Below are positions 750-23,314 of a stretch of DNA of 24,000 bases, one piece after another. Every line of letters starts with the position of its first letter. Position 1 is the first letter of the stretch. The position numbers and the translations under genes were made by a program. The notes under the pieces are model-generated. The model made no database searches. It was not told where the DNA came from and saw only the letters and a program-made list of their open reading frames with translations. This DNA comes from Anaerolineae bacterium (GTDB lineage Bacteria; Chloroflexota; Anaerolineae; Promineifilales; Promineifilaceae), in contig JAHDWK010000005.1 in NCBI GenBank assembly GCA_023382655.1, positions 348,138 to 372,137 of the forward strand. The letters are read 5' to 3'.

Positions 750-997
750 ATGTTTACCCAAACGGATATGGAGCACATCATTCGTATGCCCAACCTTATC
801 TTGCGCAATCTGCGCTTATTATGAGTTATCCGCAGGGCATGGCACAGGTGTTAGGCAGGGAGAACACCAACTGGTGCAGTTTTGCCATGTATGCTTCCAA
901 AACGGCCGGTTATGCTATTCGCCACGACCGGCTGCCGGACAAGCTGGCGCTGGCGTTTGCCTGGGTAGACGGCCGTATTCCGACCGGCACGCTGTAG
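750..997 (+). pseudogene. Frameshifted and truncated gene remnant (two tiny ORFs, 750-824 and 821-997, joined by an ATGA overlap)
   Basis: ORF1 is MFTQTDMEHIIRMPNLILRNLRLL*. ORF2 is MSYPQGMAQVLGRENTNWCSFAMYASKTAGYAIRHDRLPDKLALAFAWVDGRIPTGTL*. Read across the frameshift, this gives an RN..L..Y....M...LG...NWC.FA.YASK.AG..IR pattern. From memory this resembles the N-terminus of a conserved family of about 300 aa (I believe DUF2515, unverified). No SD is present and a strong terminator follows directly. Confidence 0.3.
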
Positions 998-1024
998 GGC
1001 ATGATTCATTTTCTTGTGGCAAAC

Positions 1025-1060
1025 AAAAACGGCCGTCCTCATGTGAGGACGGCCGTTTTT
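1025..1060. terminator. Bidirectional intrinsic terminator (perfect hairpin flanked by an A-run and a T-run)
   Basis: The sequence is AAAAACGGCCGTCCTCA-tg-TGAGGACGGCCGTTTTT. The arms are exact reverse complements, with A5 upstream and T5 downstream. It sits between the + strand remnant and the convergent - strand gene ending at 1093. Each arm contains one ACGGCCGT copy. Confidence 0.75.
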
Positions 1061-1092
1061 GTTTCCAGAGGTTGAGACGGAATCTCTAATCC

Positions 1093-2427
1093 TTACGGCG
1101 CTACTGTGGCCGGTATAGCCGGGGTAGCAGTGGGTTGGGTGTAGAAGATCGGGTCAAGGCGCGGTATTTCCGGCGTGCGGCCACGATCAAACTCGGTGAA
1201 GGTGAGATTGCCGGTAAGACGGCCGTCTAAAAAGCTGGATAACTGTTGCTGTCTGGCCTGGGTGATGGCGGCTTCGGTTAACGGCCGTGTTTCCTGCCCC
1301 GACACCATGACGATGTAATACCGGTTGGTTTCTTCATCTACCTCATGCACAATCACCGCTGTCGGTTCATTTACCGGTTGCCCGAAAATGGTGGCAGCCG
1401 CGTCGGCGCCAAAGGATTGTTCTACCTCATCCTGGGTACGCCAGAGCAGTTCAGAAACCACCGGGTTAGAAGTCGCTTCCGGGTCAATTGGCCGGCTGCG
1501 TAGTTCATTCCACGTTTGTAAAAAGCCGTTGGCTTCCACCAGCGCCTGCGCTTCGTTGGCGTCTTCTTCTGTGTCAAAAGCCATAAAGAAGAAACTGGCG
1601 TGTGGCGCTTCGGTTGGTAGATTAAACTCTGCTCCCAGAGCCTCGGCCAGCTTTTCCCGGTAAAGCTGCAACCGGATATATTCCCGGTATTGCGTTTCGC
1701 TAATACCCTTTTCCTGGTACTGGACCAACAAGTCACTTAGCTGTTCCTGGAAAGCGGTTTGGGATACGGGTGTAGCCGTGGGCGGTGGCGTCACGGTTGG
1801 CCCCAGGGTAGCCGTGGGGAAGGGGGTGTTGGTGGGCAGCAGTTCGGTGATCACGGCCGTGGGAATAGGGGTGATAGACGGCGTGGGCATAATCGTTTCC
1901 GTTGGCGCGGGCAATGGGGTGGGCGACTGGCCGCCAAAATAGTTAAACGACTCGCCAATTGCCTCGTCTACCTCAGCATCGCTCACACTGATGCCCCGGT
2001 CCCCGGCAGCCTGCAACACAATCACCTCTTCCGCCATCTGATTCAGGACTGTTTGCCCCAGTTGTTCTGGCTGGAGTAGTTCGTTAATCAACTGTCCATA
2101 GAACTGCTGAATCAACGCCACATCACCAAACGTTTCCAACTGGTTTTCCAGCAGCAGAATGCGCTGTGTCCGCTCCAGACGTACCCGGTCTTGCCACTCG
2201 CGCAGGCTGATACTTTCCCCACTGACCTCGGCCACAGCCCGGTTGGGGGAGACAAAAACCTCATTGATGATCGCTACTAACAGGACGACCAGCAAAATAC
2301 CCCCGACGACGGCCGTAGCTATATAAATGGTACGTTTTTGTTCCCGTTCCTTCCGGGCTTTCAACACTTCTTTGCGAGACTGACGTTGTTGATCTTCGTT
2401 AACCGTTTTCGTTTGCTTCTTGGTCAT
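1093..2427 (-). CDS. Membrane-anchored SurA N-terminal-domain-like / PpiD-PrsA-like folding chaperone (no clear parvulin domain seen)
   Basis: 444-aa ORF. It has a basic N-terminus and one TM helix (IYIATAVVGGILLVVLLVAII). A helical region with SurA_N-like character follows (REWQDRVRLERTQRILLLENQL, EQLGQTVLNQMAEEVIVLQAA, VSDAEVDEAI). A long Pro/Thr linker precedes the C-terminal domain. The functional call rests on pattern memory only. Confidence 0.5.
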   Translation of the reverse strand: MTKKQTKTVNEDQQRQSRKEVLKARKEREQKRTIYIATAVVGGILLVVLLVAIINEVFVSPNRAVAEVSGESISLREWQDRVRLERTQRILLLENQLETFGDVALIQQFYGQLINELLQPEQLGQTVLNQMAEEVIVLQAAGDRGISVSDAEVDEAIGESFNYFGGQSPTPLPAPTETIMPTPSITPIPTAVITELLPTNTPFPTATLGPTVTPPPTATPVSQTAFQEQLSDLLVQYQEKGISETQYREYIRLQLYREKLAEALGAEFNLPTEAPHASFFFMAFDTEEDANEAQALVEANGFLQTWNELRSRPIDPEATSNPVVSELLWRTQDEVEQSFGADAAATIFGQPVNEPTAVIVHEVDEETNRYYIVMVSGQETRPLTEAAITQARQQQLSSFLDGRLTGNLTFTEFDRGRTPEIPRLDPIFYTQPTATPAIPATVAP

Positions 2428-2441
2428 ATTGTGCAGAAATA

Positions 2442-2465: not shown

Positions 2466-2468
2466 CAC

Positions 2469-2690
2469 TTATTCTTGGGTAAAGGACACCAACGCCAGAT
2501 GGCGAGCGCGTTTAATCGCCTGGGCCAGTTCTCGTTGGTGTTTGGCGCAAACGCCTGTCTGGCGACGTGGCCGGATGCGGCCAAATTCATTCACATAGCG
2601 CAGCATCATATCAGACTGCTTATAATCAATGATTCTGTTTTTGTCGGCGCAGAAAGCACATGTCTTCTTGCGCACTTTTTGGTCATTCAT
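2469..2690 (-). CDS. rpsR: 30S ribosomal protein S18
   Basis: The 73-aa product contains [57 protein letters not shown], an unmistakable S18 signature. It sits in the conserved rpsF-ssb-rpsR order. Confidence 0.95.
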
Positions 2691-3033
2691 AAAAACCTCC
2701 GGTATCGGTCAAAACAATTAATTCATGCGCCACCACTTCCGTGCGGAAATGTTTACGACCCTGGTTATCTTCCCAGCTTCGCGTTTGCAGGCGACCTTCT
2801 ACGTAGACATACTGCTCGTGCCCAATGTGCTTCTGGCAAATTTCGGCCAGACTGCCCCAGGCGACCACATTAAACCACTCAGTTTCTTCGTGGCGTAACC
2901 CTTCCGATGATGTCCAACTGCGGGAGGTTGCCAGACTAAAGGTGGCTACAGCGCGGCCGGTTGGTGTTTCTCGCACTTCCGGCTGGCCGTCCACCCAGCC
3001 AATTAACATGACCTTATTTAGCCCTCGATTCAT
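2683..3033 (-). CDS. ssb: Single-stranded DNA-binding protein, OB-fold only (no C-terminal linker or acidic tip)
   Basis: The product reads [40 protein letters not shown]...[54 protein letters not shown], a typical SSB OB fold. I prefer the ATG at 3033, which has GGGAGA 6 nt upstream. The tracked start at 3069 is a TTG without an SD. The stop overlaps the rpsR start by 8 nt (ATGAATGA). Confidence 0.88.
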
Positions 3034-3085
3034 GGCGCTCTCCCATCCAGGCCCCGAGGATTTGGACAAACCCTCAGGGTCTTAT

Positions 3086-3379
3086 TTAGACCTCTTTGCG
3101 AACGACCAGGAAACGCAGTAAATCTTCTACGTAACGCATGCTTCGCTCGCTGTCGGCGACACGAGCGGGATCCAGCCTGGCTTCAAAGAAGACGTAATAT
3201 CCCTGCTTGTGTTTTCTGATGGGGTAAGCGAGCTGCCTCATGCCCCAATGGTTAGCCACAGGCTTGGCCTCTTCGCCTTCGCCATGGGTCAACCAGGTGG
3301 TGACGCGCTCAATTAACTCTTTGCGAGCGGCCTCTTCTAAATCAGGTTGGACAATGATAGTTACCTCGTACTCACGCAC
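3086..3379 (-). CDS. rpsF: 30S ribosomal protein S6
   Basis: The 97-aa product MREYEVTIIVQPDLEE...WGMRQLAYPIRKHKQGYYVFF matches S6. The GTG start is preceded by AAGGAGGT at 7-nt spacing. It is the first gene of the rpsF-ssb-rpsR operon. Confidence 0.95.
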   Translation of the reverse strand: MREYEVTIIVQPDLEEAARKELIERVTTWLTHGEGEEAKPVANHWGMRQLAYPIRKHKQGYYVFFEARLDPARVADSERSMRYVEDLLRFLVVRKEV

Positions 3380-3544: not shown

Positions 3545-3572
3545 TTAACGGGCACGGCCGTCGCCGTATAAT
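3545..3572 (+). promoter_or_regulatory. Possible sigma70-type promoter for sppA
   Basis: A perfect TATAAT lies at 3567-3572. TTAACG (4/6 match to TTGACA) sits 16 nt upstream at 3545-3550. The element is 43 nt upstream of the sppA ATG. Confidence 0.3.
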
Positions 3573-3614: not shown

Positions 3615-4688
3615 ATGAGTGAAGAAATAAACGAACCCATGCCCACAGTGGCTGACACGGCCGTCGTCCCACCCCCACCACCTGCCCCCACAGTCATTCA
3701 GGTGAAAAGTGAGGGGAACGGCCGTACCCCCGCCTGGGTCTTGGCCGGCGTCAGCCTGGGTTTTTTGCTGCCCGTGTGCGCCTGTGGCTTTTTGATGGTC
3801 ACATTCTTTTTTAGTGTGGCGCTGGCAGGTAGCGCCAGCCCTGCCACCAGTTCCGGCGGTTTCGGCGACGCCATCGCCATTGTGCGCGTGGAAGGAGCTA
3901 TCACACACAGTGATGATGCCCAAAGCCCCCTGGGCGCTGTCAGCGGCACGGTCATCAATGACTTGCGTGTGGCTGCCGCCGACGATTCCGTCAAGGCGAT
4001 TATCCTGCGCGTAGATAGTCCCGGCGGTACTGTTACCGGTTCTGCCCAAATCCACGATGCCCTGGCGCAGATAGAAAAACCGGTAGTGGTCAGCATGGCC
4101 GGTACGGCTGCTTCGGGCGGTTATTATGTTAGCGCCCCGGCCGACTATATTTTTGCCCGGCCCGACACCACCACCGGCAGCCTGGGGGTGGTGCTGACGT
4201 TGTATAACGTGACCGAATTATTGGACAACGTGGGGGTGAGTGTGACCAGTATCACCAGCGGCCCCAACAAAACAATTGGCAACCCCTGGGAACCGTTGAC
4301 GGCCGAACAAGAAGCCATTTTGCAAACCATTGCCGACGAGGCGTATGATGGTTTTGTGCAGGTGATTGTAGACGGCCGTAGTCTGCCCGAAGAAGAGGTG
4401 CGCGCGTTGGCGGACGGCCGTATCTACACCGGCAACCAGGCATTAGCCCTTGGCCTGGTGGACGAGTTAGGCGACCTGCCAGATGCCATCACCAAAGCCG
4501 CCACGTTGGGCGGCATCACCGGTGAACCACGCATCGTCGAATATGAACATCTGCCCAACTTCAGCGACTTTTTCACCGGCTTTTCCTCTCGGGTTAGCAA
4601 GAGTGAAGCCGAACAAACGATGGAGCTGGTGACATCCCTGATAACCCCGCAAATCGAATACCGCTATATCGGCTCAGGCGCCAATTGA
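3615..4688 (+). CDS. sppA: Signal peptide peptidase SppA, 36K type (S49 family), membrane anchored
   Basis: An N-terminal TM segment (WVLAGVSLGFLLPVCACGFLMVTFFF) is followed by S49 motifs: ILRVDSPGGTVTGS, the MAGTAASGGYYVSAPADYIFA Ser-nucleophile region, and GRIYTGNQALALGLVDELG. I prefer the ATG at 3615, which has GAGG 5 nt upstream. The tracked start at 3579 is a TTG. Confidence 0.85.
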   Translation: MSEEINEPMPTVADTAVVPPPPPAPTVIQVKSEGNGRTPAWVLAGVSLGFLLPVCACGFLMVTFFFSVALAGSASPATSSGGFGDAIAIVRVEGAITHSDDAQSPLGAVSGTVINDLRVAAADDSVKAIILRVDSPGGTVTGSAQIHDALAQIEKPVVVSMAGTAASGGYYVSAPADYIFARPDTTTGSLGVVLTLYNVTELLDNVGVSVTSITSGPNKTIGNPWEPLTAEQEAILQTIADEAYDGFVQVIVDGRSLPEEEVRALADGRIYTGNQALALGLVDELGDLPDAITKAATLGGITGEPRIVEYEHLPNFSDFFTGFSSRVSKSEAEQTMELVTSLITPQIEYRYIGSGAN

Positions 4689-4719
4689 TGCGTGACAAGA
4701 TGACAAGCAAGGTGACACG

Positions 4720-6651
4720 GTGACAACAATGTCAGATTATGCCCTTTGTCAGCAGAAATTAGTTCGGGCAATTGGTGTAATTCGTGGCCACCGTTTTTTG
4801 GCGTTGTTGCTGTTGGTCACGCTTTTTGCCGTTCTTCTGCCCCAACCACCGGCTGCCCCGGCAGCGGCGCAGGGGCAGACCAGACTGGTGCTGGCTTTCT
4901 ATTATGCCTGGTACAGCCCTGGCTCCTTTGGCCCCGGTATCACGCCCTGGCAGCCACCCGCCCCTTACTATTCCACCGACGCGGGTGTCATCCAGCGCCA
5001 GGTGAGCCAGGCGCAGGCCGCCGGCATAGATGGTTTTGTGCAAAGCTGGTATGGGCCACAAACCACCAATAATCAGACCGAAACCAATTTTCAAACGCTG
5101 CTTAACATTGCCGCCGGCAGTGGTTTCAAAGCGGCCGTAGATTTTGAAACGGCCGGCCCCTTTTTTGCTACCAATGATGACCGCATCAACGCCCTGCGCG
5201 CCTTGCTGCAAACCCATGCCAACCACCCTGCTTACCTGCGTGTTGACGGTAAACCCGTCATTTTCTTTTGGGCTAACTGGATTCTCACGCCGGCCGATTG
5301 GGTGACGATTCGCAGCGCCGTAGACCCGGATCGTAACACCATCTGGATTGCTGAAGGTGGGAACACCAACTACCTGAATGCTTTTGACGGGCTGCATCTG
5401 TACAACATCGCCTGGTCGAGCAACCCGGCGGGTACGGCCGCAACCTGGGCGGCCAATACCCGCGCTGCCGCTGCCACCTATGGCGGTTACAAATATTGGG
5501 TGGCTACGGCCATGCCCGGTTGGGACGATACCCTGGTGGGGCGGGGCGATGCCGCCTTTGTGCGCAACCGCAACGAGGGCGCCTATTACCGCTCCAGTTT
5601 TGGTGGGGCGGCGGCCAGCGCCCCGGATATGCTCATCATTACTTCGTTTAATGAGTGGCGTGAGGGCAGTAACATTGAGCCGAGCGTGGAACATGGCGAG
5701 TTTTATTTGCAGTTGACGGCCGAACTCAGCGCCGGTTTCAAATCAGGGTCGCTGCCGACTGTGCCGCTGCCGGGGACAGATCCCACGGCAGACCCCAATG
5801 CCTCGCCCACCGCACCGCCAGCCACCTTTACCCCTGGCCCCTCGCCCACGCCCACACAGACCGCCTCACCTGCGCCGACGCTGCCCCCGACCAATACGCC
5901 ACCGCCGACCGCCACCCAAACGCCAATTGCTTCGCCGACGGCCGTAGCCGACGGCCGTGTCCTCTACCTCATCCAACCCGGCGACACCCTGCTCGTCATT
6001 GCCGACCGCTTTGGCGTGCTGGTAGCCGATTTATATGCCTTCAATAATTTGACGCCCGATTCGTTGCTGTCAGTGGGGCAGGAGATCATATTGGGTTATA
6101 GTGTGCTGCCCGATGGGTCTACTTTGCTGCCCGGTTTTCCCCAGGCGCGGCAGAAACCGGATGGTGAGATTGTCCACATTGTGCAAAGTGGCGATACGAT
6201 GTTTGGCATTGCCGCCACATATGATCTGACACTGGATGAATTGGTGGAATTAAGTGGGCTGGCGGCTGATGCCTTGTTGCAGGTGAACCAGGAAGTGGTG
6301 GTGGGTCACAAACCGCAGCCGCAAGAGGTGGGTGGTTCTTCCACCGACGGCCGTACTGCTGCCCTTTCTCTCACCGATGCCACCGCCGCACCAACGGCCA
6401 CCCTCGCGCCGCCCGCCACCCTCACCACGGCCGCTTACCCGGCGGCGGCGGCCGTGCCACCCTCGCCAACCGTTACGATCCAGGCCGTTGTCAACGTACC
6501 TACGGCCACCAGTGAGCCAACGCCGGTCACGGCCGTCGCTCCCGCCGCTGCCCCCTTTGATTTTGGCTCTATCTTGCCCTATATCTTGGCCATCATCGGC
6601 CTGCTCTTTCTGGTTGGCGCCGGTTTTTTGCTCCTGGCGCGGCGACACTGA
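4720..6651 (+). CDS. Secreted glycoside hydrolase family 99-like domain protein with two LysM domains and a C-terminal TM anchor
   Basis: A signal or anchor helix ([20 protein letters not shown]) is followed by [26 protein letters not shown] and [16 protein letters not shown], motifs I associate with GH99-like hydrolases. PT-rich linkers follow. The two LysM repeats are [34 protein letters not shown] and [39 protein letters not shown]. The C-terminal TM segment is [22 protein letters not shown]. The GTG at 4720 has AAGGTG 5 nt upstream. An alternative ATG lies at 4729. Confidence 0.75.
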
Positions 6652-6683: not shown

Positions 6684-7805
6684 ATGATTCCTATGACTGA
6701 ATCTACCCTGTTCAAAGATTACTATAACGTGGGATTGGCAGAACGAATGGCGGCGCGCATCACGGCCATATACTCCACTTTTGCCGCCGCTGCCTTCGTG
6801 GCCCAGATTGGGCCGCAGCTAGATGGGCAGGAGATGAAGGCCCGCACCCTCATCTTCACTCATGCCCTGCACGACCATCTGCCGCCTGATTTCCCGGCGG
6901 CCTGGGCGGTGCTGCAAGCCACATTAGATGCCGAACCAACGGACAGTGTGTTAGATGGTGGCTGGCATTACTGGCCGATGGCGCAGTTGATTGAACTGTA
7001 TGGATTGGAACATTTTGCCGAGGCTATGCAAGCCATGCACGAGATTACCAGACGCCACACCGCCGAATTTGCTATACGGCCGTTTCTCGTTCGTTACCCG
7101 GAGCGCACCCTGGCAGTGTTGCACGAATGGACGCAGGACGAAAACCATCATGTGCGCCGCCTGGTGAGCGAAGGCACACGGCCGCGTCTGCCCTGGGGGA
7201 TGCGGCTGCACCAGTTCATCGCCGATCCCACGCCCACGTTGGCTTTGCTGGAAAAGCTGAAAGATGACCCCTCCGAGTATGTGCGCCGTTCCGTGGCCAA
7301 CCATCTGAACGACATCACCAAAGATAATCCACACCTGGTGTTGGAAACATTGGCGCGCTGGCAGGCAAATTCCACGCCGGAACGACAATGGATTACCCGC
7401 CACGCCCTGCGTTCATTGGTAAAAGCGGGCGACCCACAGGCGCTGCGGTTGTTAGGCTATGGGCAGGCACAGGCCAGCGTCTCGGCGCTCACCGTTGCGC
7501 CGCCGGTATTAACTTTTGGTAACACACTGGAAATTGCCTTCACTTTGCAAAGTGAGGTAGATGAGCCGCAGGATTTGGTTGTGGATTATGTGATTCATTT
7601 TGTGAAGGCCAACGGCCGTACCGCCCCCAAAGTATTCAAATTGCGCAATGTCTCACTGGACGGCCGTCAATCCCTCCCCCTGCGCAAAAACCATCCTTTC
7701 CGGCCCATCACCACCCGCCGCTTTTACCCCGGCCTGCACCGGGTGGAAATTCAGGTGAATGGGCAGACATTGGCGGGGGCAGATTTTGAGCTGGTAATTG
7801 GGTAA
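6684..7805 (+). CDS. DNA alkylation repair protein family (HEAT-like repeat, AlkC/AlkD-type Pfam DNA_alkylation) protein
   Basis: The 373-aa product contains HHVRRLVSEGTRPRLPWGMRL and DPSEYVRRSVANHLNDITKDNP, paired motifs characteristic of this family. No obvious SD is present. An alternative in-frame ATG lies at 6693. Confidence 0.7.
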   Translation: MIPMTESTLFKDYYNVGLAERMAARITAIYSTFAAAAFVAQIGPQLDGQEMKARTLIFTHALHDHLPPDFPAAWAVLQATLDAEPTDSVLDGGWHYWPMAQLIELYGLEHFAEAMQAMHEITRRHTAEFAIRPFLVRYPERTLAVLHEWTQDENHHVRRLVSEGTRPRLPWGMRLHQFIADPTPTLALLEKLKDDPSEYVRRSVANHLNDITKDNPHLVLETLARWQANSTPERQWITRHALRSLVKAGDPQALRLLGYGQAQASVSALTVAPPVLTFGNTLEIAFTLQSEVDEPQDLVVDYVIHFVKANGRTAPKVFKLRNVSLDGRQSLPLRKNHPFRPITTRRFYPGLHRVEIQVNGQTLAGADFELVIG

Positions 7806-7894
7806 TTGCCGCCAATTACGCAATTACCCAATCGCCTGATCACTTCCCCAAAAAGGGGAAACGGCCGTCCGATGTCTCAGAACGGCCGTTTTCC
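7797..7894 (+). terminator. Two consecutive hairpins downstream of the alkylation-repair-family gene
   Basis: Hairpin 1 has arms ATTGGGTAATTGC (7797-7809) and GCAATTACCCAAT (7820-7832). It is a 13-bp perfect stem that overlaps the stop codon. Hairpin 2 has arms AAACGGCCGT (7859-7868) and ACGGCCGTTT (7882-7891) with a 13-nt loop, running into TTTT. It is built from two ACGGCCGT copies. Confidence 0.45.
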
Positions 7895-12884: not shown

Positions 12885-12922
12885 CAGGTTTACCTCCATT
12901 TAGAATTTTTTGCTCACTACAC

Positions 12923-12971
12923 ATAGACGATCATCTATGCGTTATTATATAGAAGATCGTCTATATGTCAA
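12923..12971 (-). promoter_or_regulatory. Near-consensus sigma70 promoter of the micropeptide gene with two 16-bp palindromic operators
   Basis: All elements read on the - strand. TTGACA lies at 12971-12966, followed by a 16-nt spacer and TATAAT at 12949-12944. Operator A (12949-12964, + strand ATAGAAGATCGTCTAT) fills the spacer. Operator B (12923-12938, + strand ATAGACGATCATCTAT) covers the expected transcription start. Both fit ATAGA-n-GATC-n-TCTAT. Their centres are 26 bp apart. Confidence 0.6.
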
Positions 12972-13061
12972 CCCCTACCCAATGACAATTCTCCGCGCGC
13001 TGGTCACCTGTGGATTCAGCGCCCATGAGGGCATGACCTGTCAAGGAAATATGCAACTCTT

Positions 13062-14405: not shown

Positions 14406-16888
14406 GCCAATCAAGCCTTATTTCAATACGGAAAGGGGCAGGCGATGGCGGTCTTGCGGCTCGTCGGGCTGTGATCCGTTGGGCGTGGCGGCTGTTTCGC
14501 CGTGAGTGGCGGCAGCAACTGTTGGTATTGGGTCTGCTTACCCTGGCTGTGGCTACGGCCGTTTTCACTGCTGCATCGGCTTACAACCTGGCTCCTGTGC
14601 CGGGTAATGCTGAGTTTGGTATGGTAAATCATTACCTCCAGTTCAATGCCATTACGCCAGAAGGATTGGCGCAGGATATTGCCTTTGCCGAAACACAGTA
14701 TGGTACCATTGAGGTCATCGGCCGTTGGTTTGTGGCAGTACCTGGCTCAGTAGAGAGCATCGAGTTTAGGGCGCAAAACCCGCAAGGGGCTTATAGTGGG
14801 CCGATGTTGGCGCTGCTAGACGGCCGTTACCCCACCCACGCTGATGAAGTTGCCGTAACGGATGATGTGGCGGCAACCTTCGCTCTGGGCATTGGCGACC
14901 CCTTTGCCCTTGATGGTGTGGCGCGGACGGTGGTGGGCATAGTCGAAAATCCCAGCGACTTAAATGCTGAATTTGCCCTGGTGTCCCCCTCGTCCGATGA
15001 ACTACCGCAAGAGGTGATAATCCTGGTTGAGGCCACTGACGAGCAGGTGATCCCCTTTCGCGCACCCAGTGGAGCGACAACAACGAGGGCACGGCGGCCA
15101 GGCAACGAAGATGTAGTCGCCGCTGTAGGCGTCTTTGGCTCCACAGCCGTGACAATGCTGCTCATCGCGCTCGTCGCTACGACCAGTTTTATGGTGATAG
15201 CCCAGCGCCGCCTGCGCCAATTGGGTATGCTGGCGGCTGTCGGCGGCACCGAAAAGCACCTTCGTCTGGTGACGGTTGCCAGTGGGGTGATGATTGGTCT
15301 CCTGGCAGGGGTCATTGGTGTGGTGATCGGCCTGGCAGCCTGGTTGGCGGCGACGCCATTCATGGAACCGGTTGTTGGCTTTCGCATTAACCCGCTCAAT
15401 GTTCCCTGGTGGCTGATCGCTACCAATATCCTGCTGGCAATTATCACTGCCAGCGCAGCCGCCTGGTGGCCCGCACGTAGAATGGCGCGAATCCCTATTA
15501 TTCTGGCCCTTTCCGGCCGTCCACCCAAGCCGAAGCCAGCCCGACGTTCGGCAGCACTGGCCGGATTTTTTATCTTGGGCGGTGTCGTTTGCCTTGTCCT
15601 GGCCAACCAGACGAGCCAACTGCTTATTGTCATCGGTACTGTGGCGACTATCCTGGGGGTGCTGCTTATTGGCCCGTTTGTGCTCCAGGCTGTCGCCGCC
15701 GCAGCTGGATCGTTTCCCATTGCGGTGCGGTTAGCACTGCGCGATTTGGCCCGTTATCAGGATCGTGCCGGGGCAGCATTGGCGGCGATTAGCCTGGCTT
15801 TGGGTATTGCCGCAGCCATCGTCATCACTTCGGCGGCCGCAGAATTTACGGCCGACAAAGGCAACCTGGCCGAGAATCAGCTTTTAATTCGGACGGGCAC
15901 AGCGGTGCAGTCAGAGGGGGACAGTATTGGGGGACCATTTGTGCCAGACAGGACCCCCGCTGAACTGGACAACCTTGAAGCACAGATTACCCGATTGACG
16001 ACCGTATTGAACAATGCAGCGGTGATCCCTTTAGACGTAGCTTTCGACCCGGCGATGGAACCAGATCCCGCGTTTGGGGGGCGACCCACTGTTACCCTGG
16101 GCGAATACACCGATTTGGGTGGCATTAGCGGCTATCGAGACCTGACGCTGCTTTATGTGGCTACACCAGAGCTGCTCCATTATTATGGAATTGATGTGGA
16201 GACGATTGATCCGGCTGCAGAAGTTCTCACAGTCGAAACAGGTGAAATCAGGTTTATCGGCGTGTCCCGCTTGCCAGGCACGCGGCCGGAATTGGTAGCC
16301 AATTTTGAGCAAATATCTCCCAGTTATTCGTCGCTGCCTGGTTCATTTATCACACCGGATGCTCTGCGCCAGCGTGGTTGGGAAACGGCGCCGGTGGGCT
16401 GGCTGATTGAGGCCAATGGACCGCTCACCGCTGAGCAAATCGCTGCCGCCCGCCAGATTGCCGCAGATGCTGGTTTGACAATTGAATCACGCGACCACCA
16501 GGAAGGTTTGCTGGCCCTGCGTTCACGGGCAACGGCCGTTGGTTTATTCGTCGCCCTGGCTATTCTGGCCATGACCGTCGGCCTCATCCGCAATGAAGCA
16601 GCGGGTGATCTCAGAACACTGACGGCTGCAGGAGCTACGAGCAGGATTCGCCGCACTCTGACAGCGGCTACTGCTGGCACACTTGCCCTGCTTGGCGCTG
16701 TGCTAGGTACGGCGGGGGCATATGTCGCGCTCATCGCCGGGTACATGAGCGATATTTCAGCCCTGCGTCATGTGCCGGTTCTCAACTTACTGCTCATCGT
16801 GGTCGGTATTCCGTTGATCGCGGTGATGGCTGGCTGGATCATGGCTGGACGCGAACCGGTGATGCTCAGCCGACAACCTATCGAGTGA
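14402..16888 (+). CDS. ABC transporter permease with two FtsX-type modules and two large extracytoplasmic domains (BceB-like 10-TM architecture)
   Basis: The 828-aa product is coupled to the ATPase gene by an ATGA start/stop overlap. After the first TM helix comes a soluble domain of about 180 aa, then an FtsX-like 3-TM block (…AQRRLRQLGMLAAVGGTEKHLR…). Further TM helices are followed by a second soluble domain of about 220 aa. A second FtsX-like block closes the protein (…IRNEAAGDLRTLTAAGATSRIRR…). Confidence 0.85.
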   Translation: MSQSSLISIRKGAGDGGLAARRAVIRWAWRLFRREWRQQLLVLGLLTLAVATAVFTAASAYNLAPVPGNAEFGMVNHYLQFNAITPEGLAQDIAFAETQYGTIEVIGRWFVAVPGSVESIEFRAQNPQGAYSGPMLALLDGRYPTHADEVAVTDDVAATFALGIGDPFALDGVARTVVGIVENPSDLNAEFALVSPSSDELPQEVIILVEATDEQVIPFRAPSGATTTRARRPGNEDVVAAVGVFGSTAVTMLLIALVATTSFMVIAQRRLRQLGMLAAVGGTEKHLRLVTVASGVMIGLLAGVIGVVIGLAAWLAATPFMEPVVGFRINPLNVPWWLIATNILLAIITASAAAWWPARRMARIPIILALSGRPPKPKPARRSAALAGFFILGGVVCLVLANQTSQLLIVIGTVATILGVLLIGPFVLQAVAAAAGSFPIAVRLALRDLARYQDRAGAALAAISLALGIAAAIVITSAAAEFTADKGNLAENQLLIRTGTAVQSEGDSIGGPFVPDRTPAELDNLEAQITRLTTVLNNAAVIPLDVAFDPAMEPDPAFGGRPTVTLGEYTDLGGISGYRDLTLLYVATPELLHYYGIDVETIDPAAEVLTVETGEIRFIGVSRLPGTRPELVANFEQISPSYSSLPGSFITPDALRQRGWETAPVGWLIEANGPLTAEQIAAARQIAADAGLTIESRDHQEGLLALRSRATAVGLFVALAILAMTVGLIRNEAAGDLRTLTAAGATSRIRRTLTAATAGTLALLGAVLGTAGAYVALIAGYMSDISALRHVPVLNLLLIVVGIPLIAVMAGWIMAGREPVMLSRQPIE

Positions 16889-17212
16889 TCGCCTGCAAAG
16901 AGCATAGTCACCTGTGTTAGCTATCTCCAGGTGAAGTAGAAAATCTACCGTCAGCATCAGGTCAACGGCCGTGTTCACTACGTTTGGATTTTTGCCAGTG
17001 AATCAGAAGAGTCGTTGACAACGATTTTGACAACTGGTTATACGGGGTACACCCAACTTTATATGAACGGGCCTGGTTTGGGTCAACTGACAGGGCCAGT
17101 GGGTTGGCGATGAATTGCGTCTGAGACAGGATGAATACGGCCGTCCATGCCACTCTCTCGAGGGTTGGACAACAGTAAAAATGCAAGGGGAACAATCCAG
17201 GCAGTAAATTTC

Positions 17213-20173
17213 CTACATCATTTGTCGCTTGGCCAAATCGGCAAACACGCCTTCTGTTTTGATTAACTCGTCATAGGCGCCTTGCTGCACGACACGGCCG
17301 TCTTGCAGCACATAGATGCGGTCGGCGTTCATAATGGTGCTTAGCCGGTGGGCAATCACAATGCGGGTGGCCTGCAAATTATCCAGGCTCTCGCTGACAA
17401 TGGCCTGGGTGCGGTTGTCCAATGCGCTGGTAGCTTCGTCAAAAAAGAGGATGCGCGGCTGGTGTACCAGGGCACGAGCAATAAGCAGACGTTGCCGTTG
17501 TCCGCCAGACAGTGTGCCGCCACCTTCACTGAGTACCGTATGTAACCCCATGGGCATGGCTCTGATATCATCTTCCAGCCCGGCCATACGTACCGCCCGG
17601 CGGGCATCTTCAATGGTGAGCAGTGACGAGCCAACGATATTGGTGAAAATATCACCGGCCATCAATTTCCCGTTTTGTAATACCACGCCGATCTGGCGAC
17701 GTACCTCACGAATGTCTAAACCGGCCAGGTCACGGCCGTTGTAATAAACGGCGCCTGCCTCTGGCGTCTCAAAACCTAATAACAGGCGGAACAAGGTTGA
17801 TTTACCTGACCCTGAAGGCCCCACCAGGGCGACAAACTCACCGGGTTTCACCTGCACGGAAACATCCTGCAGAATGGCCGGCCCATCTGCCCGGTATCGG
17901 AAAGAAACGTGGCTAACTTCTAATTCTCCGGTCAATTCACCGGGGTCAGCTTTCATCTCATCCACTTCTGGTAAGGTTTCCAAAATCGGTTTGGCTCGTT
18001 CATAGGTGGGCACGATATTGAGGATAGTCACGACGGCCTGACCCAAAACCAGCACCGCCGCCAGGAATTGGACAAAAGCGGCATTAAACGCCAGAAATTG
18101 TCCGGTGGACATCGCTTCCTGACTAGAATAAGTAACCATTCCAAAGATGACAATGCTGGTGATCAGAGGAAAGGCAGCGTTAAACACTGTCAAGCGATTA
18201 GCCGTTTCACGCGCTTCATACTCTGTCTGCTTGTAACGGCTAAATTTACCGGCCCACGAAGCAAATGCATGACCTTCTACACCGGCAGCCCGCAATTTGG
18301 TTATCCCAGAGATCGTTTGCAGAACAATACCGGCGATCTGCCCCTGGAGATCAACCAATGAACGTTGATACCGAACCTGTACCCGTCCGGCGATGATGGT
18401 AACGGCCAGAGCTATGCTAACCAGAAATACAGCCACCAGTGCCAGACGGCCGTCATACCAAAAAAGCAACAACACCGAGGTGATGGAAAATACGCCTGTC
18501 AGCAACGATTGGACGACCACAGAAGACAATGTGCGTTCAATCATACTGATACCCATTACCCGCTGCCCCAGATCGCCGGCGGTATAGTCCCGGAAAAAGG
18601 AGACCGGCAACCCCAGCAGGCGATCCCACATAGCGGCCTGAATGGAATGCCCCATTTGCCCCTGCAAGCGTAACAGAGCTACGTTTTGGGTGATCTGCAC
18701 GCATAATGAGGCCAGGGCCACAAAAACCAGCAGAACACTCACCTGGAAAAGCTGCGCCCGGCTTTCATTGGGGATGATCTGGTCAATAATAAAGCCTGTT
18801 GCGATGGGAATGAACAATCCCAAAAGACTAATAACCAGGCCACATAAAAAGATGGTGCGCATGTCGTAGCCAATGTGACGCAGCCCAAACTTTACCAGAT
18901 CAAAGAGGGATAAGGCTTTTACAGGAAATGGCCGGTAAAAGGTAAAAGCGAAGGGATGTAACGTGCTGGCCACCTCTTCATCAACGACACGTTTTTCACC
19001 TGAAGACATGATCATCTCATATCTCTGACGTGGCCGTGGCAGTAAAGCTGCTGCCTGTTTTGGCTCCTCATCGCCGGCCAGAAAAGCCAACATAGGGCCA
19101 TGATTGAGCCGCCACCATTCTCCTTTGAGAGCGACGCGGCGTATTTGCACGCGGGAAGCACGGGTGATCTCGCTTAATGGATCAGCATTTTCTTTTTGAC
19201 GGCCGCCGGGTGGTTCTTTGAATTCGATGCCGAGTTGTGCGCCGAGCAGTTGGCAGGTAGCAAGCAAGGGATGGGTGTTACGGCCGTCTATCGCCGTCCG
19301 CTCCGCGGGGTTAATAAAACGGGCTGCCAGGTGACTGAGTGCCTGACCAACCATCTCCTGGTGAGAGGTGACTTTATTATGAAGACGTTCTTTGTCCTCC
19401 TCTCTCTTTTGATCCAGCCATTGTTCCAGAAAGCAGAGAATAAGCTGGTGAAACGGCGCCAGACCAAAACCTGTGGCGCCATTTTGGAGGAAGGCGGTGG
19501 TTGTGGTCACCTCAAGCTGGCTAGGCTCCATTGCTTTGAGCCAGGTACGGCTAGAGATAGGCCAGTAGAGTGTGCCATTCAGAACCGGCAACGCCACATT
19601 GCCCATAAAGGTAGATTTTCCCCTGGCGTGTCTGACCCACAAAATTCCTCGCCTGGCAGAGGCAGTGTCAGCAGGTTGCAACTGATTGCTCTGATTCAAT
19701 TCCAGGCGAATGCTTGTTTTGGGCGGTAAGACTGTTGCCAGGGCGGATGACAAATTACTAATCCAGCCGTCCACCAACGCCGCTACATGTGCGCCAAACT
19801 CCTCGTCACGCGCCAGATTCTCTAGTTGGCTTGCCTTCACTTGCAACAGGCTGGCGTTATTACTGCCTACAGCCAGCAGACCAACCCGGTCAACTTCAGG
19901 AACTAATGCCATGCCAAATAATGCCTGTCCGGCCGGTACACGAAACAGATGCTCCCGCGAACCGGCGACCTTGCCATTTTGCAGCGGCACGGCAAACAAG
20001 TCTACCCAACCGGCATAGACTACCCAGGCTATGGTGGGGTCGTTGAGCAATTCGGGGGCATTATTCCCCAATTTTTCCAGAAGGGCTGCCTTATAGCGCA
20101 AATGGAGCAGAAACAACTCTTCAACTTTATATTCTTCTGCCGGTTCTTGAGGAAGTTTTGTTGGTTCGTTCAT
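17213..20173 (-). CDS. NHLM/NHLP-type bacteriocin (RiPP) export ABC transporter, permease/ATPase subunit without peptidase domain, with an N-terminal extension of about 440 aa
   Basis: An ABC exporter TMD is followed by an NBD with Walker A GPSGSGKST, signature LSGGQRQRLLIARAL and Walker B ILFFDEATSALD. The long N-terminal region (e.g. LFRVPAGQALFGM) occupies the position where related exporters carry a cyclic-nucleotide-binding-like domain. I prefer the ATG at 20173 (MNEPTKLP...), which overlaps the upstream stop as ATGA. The tracked start at 20266 would overlap the upstream gene by 97 nt. Confidence 0.85.
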   Translation of the reverse strand: MNEPTKLPQEPAEEYKVEELFLLHLRYKAALLEKLGNNAPELLNDPTIAWVVYAGWVDLFAVPLQNGKVAGSREHLFRVPAGQALFGMALVPEVDRVGLLAVGSNNASLLQVKASQLENLARDEEFGAHVAALVDGWISNLSSALATVLPPKTSIRLELNQSNQLQPADTASARRGILWVRHARGKSTFMGNVALPVLNGTLYWPISSRTWLKAMEPSQLEVTTTTAFLQNGATGFGLAPFHQLILCFLEQWLDQKREEDKERLHNKVTSHQEMVGQALSHLAARFINPAERTAIDGRNTHPLLATCQLLGAQLGIEFKEPPGGRQKENADPLSEITRASRVQIRRVALKGEWWRLNHGPMLAFLAGDEEPKQAAALLPRPRQRYEMIMSSGEKRVVDEEVASTLHPFAFTFYRPFPVKALSLFDLVKFGLRHIGYDMRTIFLCGLVISLLGLFIPIATGFIIDQIIPNESRAQLFQVSVLLVFVALASLCVQITQNVALLRLQGQMGHSIQAAMWDRLLGLPVSFFRDYTAGDLGQRVMGISMIERTLSSVVVQSLLTGVFSITSVLLLFWYDGRLALVAVFLVSIALAVTIIAGRVQVRYQRSLVDLQGQIAGIVLQTISGITKLRAAGVEGHAFASWAGKFSRYKQTEYEARETANRLTVFNAAFPLITSIVIFGMVTYSSQEAMSTGQFLAFNAAFVQFLAAVLVLGQAVVTILNIVPTYERAKPILETLPEVDEMKADPGELTGELEVSHVSFRYRADGPAILQDVSVQVKPGEFVALVGPSGSGKSTLFRLLLGFETPEAGAVYYNGRDLAGLDIREVRRQIGVVLQNGKLMAGDIFTNIVGSSLLTIEDARRAVRMAGLEDDIRAMPMGLHTVLSEGGGTLSGGQRQRLLIARALVHQPRILFFDEATSALDNRTQAIVSESLDNLQATRIVIAHRLSTIMNADRIYVLQDGRVVQQGAYDELIKTEGVFADLAKRQMM

Positions 20174-22449
20174 GCGGTTATTGACTCCCATATTGAATCG
20201 AGTAGTCGCTCTGATTTGGGTGTATCCGCTTGGATCAGGTGGGCGTAATGCCCACCTTTGCGCCACAATTGTTCGTGTGTGCCACGCTCTACGACCAGTC
20301 CCTTGTCTAGCACAATGATTTCATCACAATCACGGATGGTACTCAAACGATGGGCGATTATAAGACAGGTACAGCCCCGACGGCGCAAGTTGTTGTCCAC
20401 AATTTTTTCGGTAACGGGATCCAGGGCGCTAGTGGCTTCATCCAATACCAGGATAGAGGGATTGGTGACCAGGGCGCGGGCAATTTCCAGACGCTGCCGC
20501 TGACCGCCGCTAAAGTTACGGCCGCCTTCACTTACCAGGCGATCATAGCCGTCGGGCTGGTTAGCAATATCATCATGGATGTGAGCATCCTTGGCGGCCT
20601 GGATGACGCTTTCTTCAGGAATGAACGAATCCCACATGGTCAAGTTCTCTTTAACTGACCCGGCAAACAAGAATATATCCTGGTCTACGATGGAGAGAGA
20701 GTTATTTAATATGATCCGCGGGATATGGGCGCGGGTTTGTCCATCAAACAGAATTTGACCTTCCCAGGGTTGATACAGGCCCGCTACCAGTCTGGCAACG
20801 GTAGATTTGCCGCTGCCGCTGCCCCCTACCAGAGCGACGCGGGAGCCTGGTTCCAGGTAGAGGTTAAAATCCTCAATAAGGGGTTTGGCTAATTTGCTGT
20901 AACCAAACGTGATGTGGCGCAATTCGATGGTTCCAGATAGTTTGGTCGGGCTGTTTTCCAGGTGCGCAGTGGAGTCTACCACCTGTACCTGGGGATCAGG
21001 TTGGTAATCAAGAACGTCATCTAATTTGTTGAGAGAGGCTTCCATTTCCTGTAGCTGGGCGCCCAGGCCCACCATCTCGTTGACAGGGGTCAGAAAGCTG
21101 ATCATCAGGGTTTGAAAAGCTACCAAAACACCGAGAGAAAGCTGGCCGTTTATGATTTGCAGGCCGCCAATGGTCAGGATAACAACACTGGTTAAAGTTG
21201 TCAGGAAGAGGGGTACGGCCGTGACAATTTGTGTTGTCTGGCCTAGTTCTTGGGTGGCGTTAAATACTTTGGCCTGATAACCTGCCCAGCGAGCAAAAAA
21301 GTCAGGCTCCCCGCCGGTAGCTTTGATTGTTTCAATGTTTTGCAGCCCACTAAAAGCTGTGGCCAACATCTTGCTGTTTTCCATTACCAGCCGTTGGTTA
21401 GCATCTGTGCGCCGACGAGAAGCAGCCCGCAATACCACAAAGTTAAGTGCGGCCATGCCAATACCCACCAGGGTTAATAAAACGCTATAACGAAACATGA
21501 CCGCAGCGTAGAAAGCAATTAATACGAGATTGAGCAAGGAAGTGGCCAGTTGACCGGAAAGTAATTGGGCTACCCGATCATTGATGCCCACCCGGGAACT
21601 GATGTCGCCGGCGCTGCGCTGGGTGAAAAACTCAATGGGCAGGCGCAAAATGTGCCAGAGCAGCCGACTGGAATTGAGTAATGAAAGTCGGGATTCCAGC
21701 CGCAGCAGATAATGTTGTTGCACGGCCGTGAGTATTCCGCGTAGTACGGCCGTGATTCCCATACCAATCAACAATGGCCCCACCCACGATTCCATTCCCT
21801 GTACCAGATAGTAATCTACAAAAAACGCGGAAAATGCCGGAATCAAAATACCTGGAATCAATAACAACAGGCTCACCAGAACGATATACAGTAGGGCTGT
21901 TTCTGACCCCCGCAAACGTTTGTACAAAGCAGTGAACAGGCTGCCCTGTTTGCTCTCTTTTTTGAATTGTTCGCTCTTTTCAAAAGTAAGCACCACGCCT
22001 GTAAAAGCCTGATCAAACTCTTCCGTGGAAACCACACGCGGGCCTGTGGCTGGATCGTTCAGAAAAACCTTGTCTTTGCTAAAACCTTCCACTACCAGAA
22101 AATGATTAAAATTCCAGTGGACGATCATGGGTAGAGGCAAGTCACGCAAAGGGCCTGGGCCATAGCGGAATCCTCTGGCCGTCAGGCCATAGGTACGGGC
22201 GGCGCGCAAGACATTGCTGGCCTTGCTGCCATCACGCGAGACGCCACATTGCACCCGCAACTCTTCCAGCGGCACATAACAACCATGGAAAGCTAACACA
22301 ATCGCCAGAGCGGCCGCGCCACATTCCACCGCCTCCATCTGTAAGATAGTTGGTGTTTTCACGCGCTGCTTGCGGGGCCAACGGCGAGATTTTCGCACGC
22401 GAGATTCTCGCGCACTCTCCTTGTTTTCCACTTGCATTTCTTGGGTCAT
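20170..22449 (-). CDS. NHLM/NHLP-type bacteriocin export ABC transporter with N-terminal C39 leader peptidase domain (peptidase/permease/ATPase)
   Basis: The C39 domain shows PTILQMEAVECGAAALAIVLAFHG (catalytic Cys) and IVHWNFNHFLVVEG (His). A six-helix TMD follows. The NBD has GGSGSGKST, FSGGQRQRLEIARAL and ILVLDEATSALD. The ATG at 22449 has AGGTG upstream. The tracked start at 22455 is a GTG. Confidence 0.9.
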   Translation of the reverse strand: MTQEMQVENKESARESRVRKSRRWPRKQRVKTPTILQMEAVECGAAALAIVLAFHGCYVPLEELRVQCGVSRDGSKASNVLRAARTYGLTARGFRYGPGPLRDLPLPMIVHWNFNHFLVVEGFSKDKVFLNDPATGPRVVSTEEFDQAFTGVVLTFEKSEQFKKESKQGSLFTALYKRLRGSETALLYIVLVSLLLLIPGILIPAFSAFFVDYYLVQGMESWVGPLLIGMGITAVLRGILTAVQQHYLLRLESRLSLLNSSRLLWHILRLPIEFFTQRSAGDISSRVGINDRVAQLLSGQLATSLLNLVLIAFYAAVMFRYSVLLTLVGIGMAALNFVVLRAASRRRTDANQRLVMENSKMLATAFSGLQNIETIKATGGEPDFFARWAGYQAKVFNATQELGQTTQIVTAVPLFLTTLTSVVILTIGGLQIINGQLSLGVLVAFQTLMISFLTPVNEMVGLGAQLQEMEASLNKLDDVLDYQPDPQVQVVDSTAHLENSPTKLSGTIELRHITFGYSKLAKPLIEDFNLYLEPGSRVALVGGSGSGKSTVARLVAGLYQPWEGQILFDGQTRAHIPRIILNNSLSIVDQDIFLFAGSVKENLTMWDSFIPEESVIQAAKDAHIHDDIANQPDGYDRLVSEGGRNFSGGQRQRLEIARALVTNPSILVLDEATSALDPVTEKIVDNNLRRRGCTCLIIAHRLSTIRDCDEIIVLDKGLVVERGTHEQLWRKGGHYAHLIQADTPKSERLLDSIWESITA

Positions 22450-22489
22450 AGACACACCTGATGGTTAGAAGCTAAAATTTGTAAAAAAG

Positions 22490-23314
22490 TTACCTACCGG
22501 AAAAGAGCAATTCAATAGGACGTTGCCAACCAATGACGATGTTTGCCTGCCCCAAAGAGCCACTGGTAAGTGAAAAATCCGGTCCCGAAGCCGATGTCCA
22601 GGCCAGTCCCGTAGGTGTTGTGGCATCTTCTAATAGGGCAATGCGCACCTTCACAGGTGCATCACTGTTCGCAATCATTGCCGCCAATTCTTCATTGCCT
22701 ATGTTGGCGACAATCCCTGACCAGGAAGAGGGGAAACTGTCAATAGAAACAATTTGCCCCAAAAGGAAACCATACTCTTCTGGTAACGCGGTTTCTGGCG
22801 CCAGTTTCACCGCTAGACCTGGCGATAAGCGCCGGGCATCCTGCCGGGAGAGATAAGCGACAGCTTCCAGGTAAACCTGACCATCAACAGGCTCCAGGCT
22901 GACAATGGGTGCGCCCGGTTCAATCAAATACCCCTCATTTGTTTTCACCTCAACGACACGGCCGTTGTATGGAGAAAGAACGGGCTGTACCGTATCCTGG
23001 CCGATAGATTTGATATGGGCAATAACCTGACCCGCTTCTACTACGTTTCCCGATGAGACGGTCAGATCGGAAACCTGGCCGCCATATAATGAGATGACAT
23101 TCTGAATGCCACCCGGTGGCAGAAAGATGACGGGACCGGCCACTTCCACCGGCATACGGCTGAATATGCTCCAGAGTACGGCCGTCAGTAAAAGCCCCAT
23201 TAACCCTGCCAGAGCGAGCCAACTTTTAGAGCCGGTTACATGCATCAGCAAATCGAGTTGTTCAGGGGATGATAATCTGTCTAGAGCCACTTTTCGGAAA
23301 ATTTGTGAGGTCAT
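22490..23314 (-). CDS. HlyD-family membrane fusion / secretion protein of the NHLM export system (unusually short, coiled-coil hairpin essentially absent)
   Basis: The 274-aa product begins IFRKVALDRLSSPEQLD and carries a TM helix (WLALAGLMGLLLTAVLWSIF). The lipoyl-like halves are GGQVSDLTVSSGNVVEAGQVIAHIKS and SPYNGRVVEVKTNEGYLIEPGAPIVSLEP. Only about 10 residues separate them. The gene lies immediately upstream of the two ABC genes. Confidence 0.78.
   Translation of the reverse strand: MTSQIFRKVALDRLSSPEQLDLLMHVTGSKSWLALAGLMGLLLTAVLWSIFSRMPVEVAGPVIFLPPGGIQNVISLYGGQVSDLTVSSGNVVEAGQVIAHIKSIGQDTVQPVLSPYNGRVVEVKTNEGYLIEPGAPIVSLEPVDGQVYLEAVAYLSRQDARRLSPGLAVKLAPETALPEEYGFLLGQIVSIDSFPSSWSGIVANIGNEELAAMIANSDAPVKVRIALLEDATTPTGLAWTSASGPDFSLTSGSLGQANIVIGWQRPIELLFSGR

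Follow-up and report, generated by a model that had tools for sequence, protein, structure and literature searches.

A HIP1-like highly iterated palindrome in Ardenticatenia-type Chloroflexota

How does one 8-bp palindrome come to be written 48 times into 24 kb of a bacterial genome? The window analysed here is a 24,000-nucleotide stretch from an Anaerolineae bacterium (Chloroflexota, Promineifilaceae; assembly GCA_023382655.1, contig JAHDWK010000005.1, positions 348,138 to 372,137), and the word in question is ACGGCCGT. The original prediction, made from the sequence alone, likened it to HIP1 (GCGATCGC), the highly iterated palindrome (HIP) of cyanobacteria, while noting that the word itself was different and was not known as a HIP. 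The likeness is supported by enrichment, independence of coding, location, deviations at the outer bases, site conservation and clade-wide spread. We conclude that ACGGCCGT belongs with HIP1 among the highly iterated palindromes, and that it is a DNA-level signal, neither a coding nor a mobile-element feature. No description of ACGGCCGT as a HIP was found in the searchable literature, in line with the earlier statement, but the coverage of that search is incomplete and an earlier mention is possible. The published HIP work that we found concerns cyanobacteria only.

Abundance of the word and its footprint in proteins

The count of 48 exact copies between 969 and 23185, together with every coordinate, was reproduced exactly. 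The predicted expectation of about 0.6 copies and excess of 50-100 fold were equally accurate: dinucleotide-preserving shuffles gave a mean of 0.56 copies and a maximum of 3, which corresponds to an excess of ~90-fold. Based on Markov models of order 0, 1, 2 and 3, the observed/expected ratio in the window is 89, 97, 49 and 27. The ratio falls to 2.3 at order 5 and to 1.1 at order 6 because the 6- and 7-mer sub-words are nearly all supplied by ACGGCCGT itself. The maximal-order comparison suggested with the original prediction thus returns a value near 1, one in which the word is measured almost entirely against its own parts, and was set aside as uninformative. HIPs are GC-rich short palindromes with hundreds to thousands of copies per Mb and observed/expected ratios of 15-300; in the window ACGGCCGT reaches 2000 copies per Mb, with ratios of 86-97. 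It is the sole abundant palindromic 8-mer (the runner-up has 3 copies), and the HIP1 word GCGATCGC has 0 copies and its core CGATCG 1. The density continues onto neighbouring sequence of the same genome, where 74 copies were counted in 39.9 kb.

The bases on either side of the word are close to random. For example, the base preceding the shared 7-mer ACGGCCG is nearly evenly distributed (G 18, A 15, C 15, T 12), and the repeated unit is therefore the 8-mer with variable flanks, as had been claimed. One-off variants had been described as frequent. Half-site variants, in which ACGGCCG lacks its final T or CGGCCGT its initial A, are indeed raised, with 17 in the window and ~4 expected from simple composition arithmetic, but they remain far below the full word. 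Based on the gene calls of the source contig, 39 of the 48 copies (81%) lie within genes and 9 are intergenic, and the density is higher in intergenic DNA (3.7 per kb) than in coding DNA (1.8 per kb). Copy spacing fits random placement (coefficient of variation 1.0), and no regular spacing was found at the scale of the window. Xu et al. 2018 count periodicity over 10-90 kb among the traits of HIPs; the contiguous sequence covered here is 40 kb.

All three reading frames are used by the 39 genic copies: 17 encode T-A-V, 19 encode (D/N/H)-G-R and 3 encode R-P. This agrees with the split of 12, 13 and 2 reported earlier for 27 phased copies. Nearly every available tripeptide site already uses the word. 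ACGGCCGT is written at 17 of 21 T-A-V opportunities and 19 of 20 (D/N/H/Y)-G-R opportunities (36 of 41 combined), and at 3 of 6 R-P-compatible ones. The frame bias is consequently a matter of opportunity and not of preference: T-A-V and x-G-R sites are ~90% saturated, and R-P-compatible peptides are rare.

Coding usage fails to reproduce the count. When codons were shuffled synonymously within genes, with proteins and codon usage kept, 4.5 ± 2.1 copies were obtained (maximum 14), compared with the 39 observed; permutation of codon order gave 0.87. Codon or amino-acid usage as the cause of the excess was ruled out by these shuffles, the first of which had been proposed with the original prediction. 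The tripeptides themselves are also over-represented. The window encodes 21 T-A-V and 20 (D/N/H/Y)-G-R, each against 4.1 expected from amino-acid shuffles, which is ~5-fold, and the same tripeptides in reverse order are no more common than expected. In L122, an Ardenticatenaceae locus picked by homology, there are 22 T-A-V against 2.9 expected and 13 x-G-R against 4.0, and 34 of the 35 tripeptide opportunities are written with ACGGCCGT. A Caldilineaceae control locus (L123) shows no enrichment (T-A-V 2 against 2.8, x-G-R 6 against 4.2) and uses the word at 1 of 8 opportunities. Since the tripeptides are ~5-fold enriched, the DNA word has reshaped the proteins. An alignment of the 888-residue molybdopterin oxidoreductase of the window with 120 homologues (121 sequences) locates such replacements: lineages that carry the word have replaced the family's DGS by DGR, its NGQ by NGR, and its AAV, TAL or TPV by TAV. 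The pressure for ACGGCCGT forces amino-acid replacements.

Lineages, variant words and orthologous sites

The distribution of the word was surveyed in one genome per prokaryotic species, with three copies of ACGGCCGT within short distances scored as a match, and at least 119 loci were recovered. Among the matches listed, locus densities are bimodal, and all loci with dispersed copies at 1.4-3.3 per kb are from Chloroflexota (at least 21 assemblies). These assemblies are Ardenticatenaceae metagenome-assembled genomes (MAGs), Candidatus Leptovillus affinis, Candidatus Leptofilum, and MAGs labelled Anaerolineae, Chloroflexia or Chloroflexota. Leptovillus and the Ardenticatenaceae are placed in class Ardenticatenia in the NCBI taxonomy. 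A Promineifilaceae MAG (L061) has dispersed ACGGCCGT at ~1.0 per kb. When the Chloroflexota loci are pooled with the window and L122, 654 copies are found in 280 kb (2.3 per kb). Control loci drawn from metagenomes by protein homology and not by the word (n = 80) have 0-2 copies each. The window derives from an assembly of runs SRR21762700 and SRR21762701, and its proteins resemble those of Ardenticatenaceae, Caldilineaceae and Anaerolineales. The comparison with related genomes that had been called for thus finds a word that is clade-wide in Chloroflexota and is without enrichment in the Caldilineaceae locus L123.

Matches in other phyla (Streptomyces, Pseudonocardiales, Bacillota, Eubacterium and others) were rejected as dispersed words, being attributable to chance in genomes of >65% GC or to local tandem repeats, which have periods of 13-36. 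Two loci (L013, 2661-2851 and 5648-5985; L014, 7690-7920) have tandem 21-bp units, each with the word ACGGCCGT, that encode P-T-A-V-Q-V-I heptads; some word clusters are therefore repeat-protein arrays.

The word is also found on mobile DNA. A scan of viral contigs yielded 22 word-rich loci. A Mu-like phage (L213 and L291, parts of one 65.5-kb IMG/VR contig), with genes for a protease, a large terminase, a Mu F protein and a Mu-type portal, carries 3.5 copies of ACGGCCGT per kb over at least 26 kb. The word reaches 3.7 per kb on a conjugative- or plasmid-like element (L205, a 100-kb contig) that encodes ParA, FtsK/SpoIIIE, a lytic transglycosylase (SLT) and RadC. Both densities exceed that of the window.

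Deviations from the word are concentrated at its ends. Across the pooled loci, variants that differ from the word at position 1 or 8 have 27-63 copies each, and those that differ at one of the six inner positions have 0-19; as in other HIPs, the deviations are biased to the outer positions and spare an inner, methyltransferase-type core. Four related loci (L121, L224, L343 and L344) have the hexamer CGGCCG by itself, at 4-7 per kb (5-7 in L121, L224 and L343); its flanks are free, and full ACGGCCGT are few. Their oxidoreductase proteins are 66-81% identical to that of the window (80% for L121 and L224). The proteome footprint shifts accordingly in the hexamer lineage, with 47 G-R against 29 expected and 34 R-P against 21 expected. 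Another locus, L342, is intermediate between the 8-mer and hexamer states. In two metagenome loci at 67-68% identity (L124 and L125) the top palindrome is CCGGCCGG, with 14 and 7 copies, and this may be a third variant word with the common core. Because sister lineages carry bare CGGCCG or CCGGCCGG, we conclude that the CGGCCG hexamer is the evolutionarily stable element and that the outer A·T pair is lineage-specific. In a neighbour-joining tree of the oxidoreductase gene, a single-gene tree, the 8-mer state falls in two separate groups.

Individual sites are conserved between orthologues. The oxidoreductase gene (10018-12684, plus strand) of the window and that of L122 encode proteins of 64% identity, and 6 of the 7 copies of ACGGCCGT are at the same aligned position. 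Of the four-fold-degenerate sites inside the word, 12 of 13 are identical between these two, compared with 143 of 312 (46%) outside it (p = 0.001). Against the closer L222 and L223 (86-88% identical), the corresponding values are 14 of 14 inside and ~70% outside. Synonymous positions inside the word are thus far better conserved than those around it. Based on the two genes compared, ACGGCCGT shows the site conservation by which Xu et al. 2018 characterized the HIP class. Such conservation fits either selection or a process that restores the word.

The seven oxidoreductase copies differ in how widely they are shared. Those at 10043-10050 (N-G-R, where the family majority is NGQ) and 10654-10661 (T-A-V, family majority TAL) are also in L222, L223 and L122. 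Copies 11099-11106 (H-G-R) and 11198-11205 (D-G-R, family majority DGS) are present in five of five compared orthologues. Two T-A-V copies, 11368-11375 and 12274-12281, are present in four; the former is GCGGCCGT in the hexamer lineage L121, and at the latter the family majority is AAV. The copy at 12221-12228 (H-G-R) is absent in L224, L121 and L122. In L222 it reads ATGGCCGT, a C/T difference at position 2 and the sole word difference between close strains. In this 88%-identical strain the difference is synonymous (CAC/CAT). Deamination of a methylated C would be expected to give such a change, which was seen here as a single event.

From saturation, replacement, variant words and mobile DNA we conclude that a sequence-specific pressure centred on CGGCCG saturates the positions that tolerate it, maintains the word there and overrides weak protein constraint. 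All DNA that resides in these cells is subject to this pressure, the outer specificity of which changes between close lineages.

Individual copies and local context

The intergenic copies at the left end of the window lie between the convergent genes 42-695 and 1093-2427. One is at 969-976, and two others, 1029-1036 and 1049-1056, lie in the left and right arms of a terminator-like inverted repeat at 1021-1064, which has perfect 21-nt arms with A and T tracts alongside. A second terminator-like repeat, at 7856-7894, has copies in its left (7861-7868) and right (7882-7889) arms, is followed by TTTT and lies just downstream of the gene at 6684-7805. Across the pooled word-rich loci, hairpin-extended pairs make up only 4 of 193 close pairs. 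A terminator role was accordingly rejected as the function of ACGGCCGT, and the hairpin pairs are occasional co-option. The remaining intergenic copies are at 3554-3561, between the divergent rpsF and S49 peptidase genes and within a promoter-like site (3545-3572); at 8222-8229, in an interval without a called gene (7806-8523); and at 16965-16972 and 17137-17144, both between convergent genes.

Among the genic copies of the left half, four are in a SurA_N-like gene (1093-2427, minus strand): 1219-1226 (D-G-R, in FLDGRLT), 1281-1288 (R-P, QETRPLT), 1853-1860 (T-A-V, IPTAVIT) and 2309-2316 (T-A-V, IATAVVG). The S49/SppA-like peptidase gene (3615-4688, plus strand) has a T-A-V copy at 3657-3664 (ADTAVVP), an N-G-R copy at 3718-3725 (EGNGRTP) and D-G-R copies at 4372-4379 (IVDGRSL) and 4414-4421 (LADGRIY). 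In the GH99/GH71-LysM gene (4720-6651, plus strand), T-A-V is encoded at 5938-5945 (SPTAVAD) and 6529-6536 (PVTAVAP), and D-G-R at 5951-5958 (VADGRVL) and 6347-6354 (STDGRTA). Copies in the HEAT/DNA_alkylation-like gene (6684-7805, plus strand) are at 7076-7083 (R-P, FAIRPFL), 7612-7619 (N-G-R, KANGRTA) and 7660-7667 (D-G-R, SLDGRQS). The adjoining DUF2779 gene (8524-9978, plus strand) contains 8690-8697 (D-G-R, FPDGRTI), 9340-9347 (T-A-V, QQTAVDA), 9555-9562 (R-P, DPRRPLI) and 9880-9887 (T-A-V, GDTAVKE). Its product has weak Cas4-like and RNase H-like matches and is a predicted nuclease; the neighbouring HEAT-repeat gene is DNA-alkylation-repair-like.

Beyond the oxidoreductase, T-A-V copies are found in the ABC ATPase gene (13686-14405, plus strand) at 13740-13747 (GPTAVRA) and, in the FtsX permease gene (14402-16888, plus strand), at 14555-14562 (VATAVFT) and 16532-16539 (RATAVGL), the latter gene also having D-G-R at 14820-14827 (LLDGRYP). 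A 20-nt inverted repeat (ACACATAGACGATCATCTAT / ATAGAAGATCGTCTATATGT) lies upstream of this PadR-ABC-FtsX operon, at 12919-12977. It shares bases with a perfect -35/-10 promoter match on the minus strand and is probably an operator. An ABC exporter gene (17213-20173, minus strand) has D-G-R copies at 17294-17301 (LQDGRVV), 18446-18453 (WYDGRLA) and 19280-19287 (AIDGRNT) and an N-G-R copy at 17732-17739 (YYNGRDL). A C39-peptidase ABC exporter gene (20170-22449, minus strand) has three T-A-V copies, at 21215-21222 (IVTAVPL), 21722-21729 (ILTAVQQ) and 21746-21753 (GITAVLR). The last gene with copies, HlyD-like (22490-23314, minus strand), has N-G-R at 22958-22965 (PYNGRVV) and T-A-V at 23178-23185 (LLTAVLW).

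Two stretches are poor in the word. The rpsR-ssb-rpsF operon (2469-3379, minus strand), which was mis-called in the first list of open reading frames, has no ACGGCCGT in ~0.9 kb, compared with ~1.7 expected at the window average. The region from 17213 to 24000, with 7 kb beyond it (L345), is a class II lanthipeptide-type cluster that encodes a LanM-like synthetase, two glycosyltransferases, a flavin reductase, a DUF7005 protein, a HlyD-like protein and two ABC exporters, one with a C39 peptidase. At a GC content of ~0.51, the cluster has ACGGCCGT at ~1.2 per kb, compared with 2.2 elsewhere. The low density possibly reflects more recent acquisition.

Mechanism, rival explanations and known systems

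We propose that ACGGCCGT is a lineage-specific HIP of Ardenticatenia-type Chloroflexota, made as a DNA-level signal by a sequence-specific process that is linked to a methyltransferase. We assign this reading a probability of roughly 45%. As to the agent, we tentatively favour, by analogy with cyanobacteria and E. coli, a resident CGGCCG-family DNA methyltransferase together with repair or recombination biased toward the methylatable word, and place this slightly below the reading as a whole. The methyltransferase, probably solitary, would recognise the word, and a biased repair or recombination step would work with it. Near-cognate sequences would be converted to the word, and cognate sites would be restored after mutation. 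The word would then spread by molecular drive through whatever DNA is replicated in the cells, and a drive of this kind would build it up in resident phages and conjugative elements too. One analogy is with the effect of very-short-patch repair on Dcm sites in E. coli. The other is with cyanobacteria, where each alternate HIP has a methyltransferase that matches it in specificity, where deviations spare the methyltransferase core, and where Elhai proposed methyl-directed repair for HIP1 (Elhai 2015, PMC4390886).

Several observations weigh against this proposal. Pfam calls in the window and 16 kb of flanks from the same genome gave no methyltransferase or Vsr-type gene. Similarly, a regular-expression scan of ~450 kb of word-rich host and viral loci gave neither C5 motifs I and IV nor DPPY-type motifs, and literature searches found no methylation data. 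A strict Vsr-type model predicts depletion of C-to-T variants of the word, yet in the pooled loci these show no visible depletion relative to the other inner variants. Eight-base specificity is rare among methyltransferases, and a component other than the methyltransferase may account for the outer A·T pair. The strong positional conservation is equally predicted by selection on a functional site, and for HIP1 Xu et al. 2018 (PMC5861425) preferred selection to neutral replenishment. Selection for an uptake, recombination or chromosome-structure signal is a serious rival.

One form of this rival holds that ACGGCCGT is a selected site, either a 'self' tag for DNA uptake or homologous recombination, as lately suggested for HIP1, or a bidirectional Chi-like protection signal, with its density kept by selection or by uptake-plus-recombination drive and not by methylation-linked repair. 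A density of ~2 per kb falls in the range of uptake sequences, and the word is at or above host density on phage and conjugative DNA, as if a tag benefited incoming DNA. The conservation of synonymous positions inside the word far beyond background would be expected, two pairs in the window make terminator-like hairpins as uptake sequences often do, and recent work on HIP1, a preprint among it (10.64898/2026.06.24.733823), points to effects on transformation. However, known uptake sequences and Chi are asymmetric and ACGGCCGT is a perfect palindrome, hairpin-extended pairs are rare, and the easy switching between 8-mer, hexamer and CCGGCCGG among close relatives looks more like drift of an enzyme specificity than a conserved receptor code. 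The class of DNA uptake sequences, with their asymmetry, extended consensus and frequent terminator pairs, was rejected for a palindrome with no flank consensus and hairpins in 4 of 193 pairs, and we consider a selected tag or protection signal unlikely, although less so than any of the alternatives that follow. A binding site for an abundant nucleoid-associated or chromosome-organising protein, selected for chromosome structure, would suit a palindrome read by a dimeric binder and a word that is genome-wide and positionally conserved, and such a role was argued for HIP1 by Xu et al. 2018 (PMC5861425). Yet copies in the window are spaced at random, no candidate protein emerged, and the near-complete saturation of coding opportunities exceeds what a structural role needs; we regard this explanation as improbable.

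The other alternatives fare worse. The original prediction pointed out that the core is a classic restriction-modification target: CGGCCG is an EagI/Eco52I-type site and GGCC a HaeIII site. This stands as a lead towards methylation. It does not stand for restriction, as such targets are, as a rule, depleted in hosts and in the phages that infect them. ACGGCCGT is ~90-fold over-represented, the Mu-like phage carries it at 3.5 per kb, and GGCC outside the word is not avoided in the window (254 copies compared with ~141 expected by simple arithmetic from composition). Enrichment on phage and conjugative DNA argues against a restriction target, and with the word enriched where such a site would be avoided, in host and phages alike, this class was rejected; that ACGGCCGT is the target of an active restriction-modification system is very improbable. 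A by-product of amino-acid, codon or dipeptide usage alone could appeal to ACG, GCC, GGC and CGT, all of which are reasonably common codons in the genes of the window. Against it stand the shuffle that keeps the proteins and the codon permutation (4.5 ± 2.1 and 0.87 compared with 39), the higher density of the word in intergenic than in coding DNA, and its use at only 1 of 8 opportunities in the control relative L123, so that we give usage practically no credence. Two copy pairs sit in longer inverted repeats, as remnants of a short mobile repeat of the repetitive extragenic palindrome (REP) or miniature inverted-repeat transposable element (MITE) type might. But the flanking bases are essentially random, outward extension is seen in only 4 of 193 close pairs, and 39 of 48 copies are in-frame in ordinary genes at positions common to orthologues. 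The REP/MITE class consists of extragenic imperfect palindromes that measure at least 20-40 nt and have a conserved body; it was rejected for a unit of 8 nt that is 81% genic with random flanks, and a mobile origin is almost certainly wrong.

A broader claim is that ACGGCCGT represents a second, independent origin of HIPs outside cyanobacteria, run by a CGGCCG-centred system whose specificity evolves (ACGGCCGT, bare CGGCCG, CCGGCCGG) and which rewrites proteins and marks phages and conjugative elements. We lean slightly towards this claim. If it is true, the three natural states amount to a comparative experiment by which the machinery behind HIPs could be identified. What HIP1 is for and how it arose have been asked for ~30 years and studied in one phylum alone. 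An unrelated phylum with another word, and with close relatives in three different states, permits a phylogenetic test: the gene that switches with the word, whether for a methyltransferase, a repair nuclease, or an uptake or binding protein, would be the machinery. The force is strong, as T-A-V and (D/N/H/Y)-G-R are ~5-fold enriched in the proteomes of genomes that carry the word. In practical terms, ACGGCCGT offers a sharp k-mer marker by which these Chloroflexota of wastewater and soil can be binned and by which phages and plasmids can be linked to them; the Mu-like phage and the conjugative element were picked up in this way. It can also flag recently acquired islands, and the lanthipeptide cluster has half the density. 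Cloning designs are affected by EagI sites every 300-500 bp.

Three known systems bear comparison. The uptake sequences of Neisseria (DUS) and Pasteurellaceae (USS) occur at about one per kb, intrude into coding sequence, affect peptides and occasionally form terminator-hairpin stems, as do the pairs at 1021-1064 and 7856-7894 in the window. They differ in being asymmetric 9-12-mers with extended consensus flanks, whereas ACGGCCGT is an exact palindrome with no flank consensus and rare hairpin pairs. Very-short-patch repair by Dcm/Vsr in E. coli, in which CCWGG-related words are biased toward the methylatable sequence, is a precedent for over-representation of a methyltransferase target through biased mismatch correction. 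The E. coli effect is modest, however, and far from 90-fold; in addition, no Vsr or C5-methyltransferase gene was found in the DNA examined here, and T-variants of the word are not clearly depleted.

The closest counterpart is HIP1. Both are GC-rich palindromic octamers with ~2000 copies per Mb and an observed/expected ratio near 90, and both occupy coding and non-coding DNA with variable flanks. In each, one-base changes affect chiefly the two end bases and surround a 6-base core, a classic type II site (CGATCG for HIP1, CGGCCG here), sites are conserved beyond codons, and related lineages have swapped to variant words. The two differ in phylum, cyanobacteria for HIP1 and Chloroflexota (class Ardenticatenia) for ACGGCCGT, and in the word itself, and HIP1 has the known methyltransferases DmtA and DmtC. 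Unlike HIP1, ACGGCCGT nearly saturates its coding opportunities (83-97%), leaves a clear footprint in the proteome, and has close relatives in which a pure hexamer state exists.

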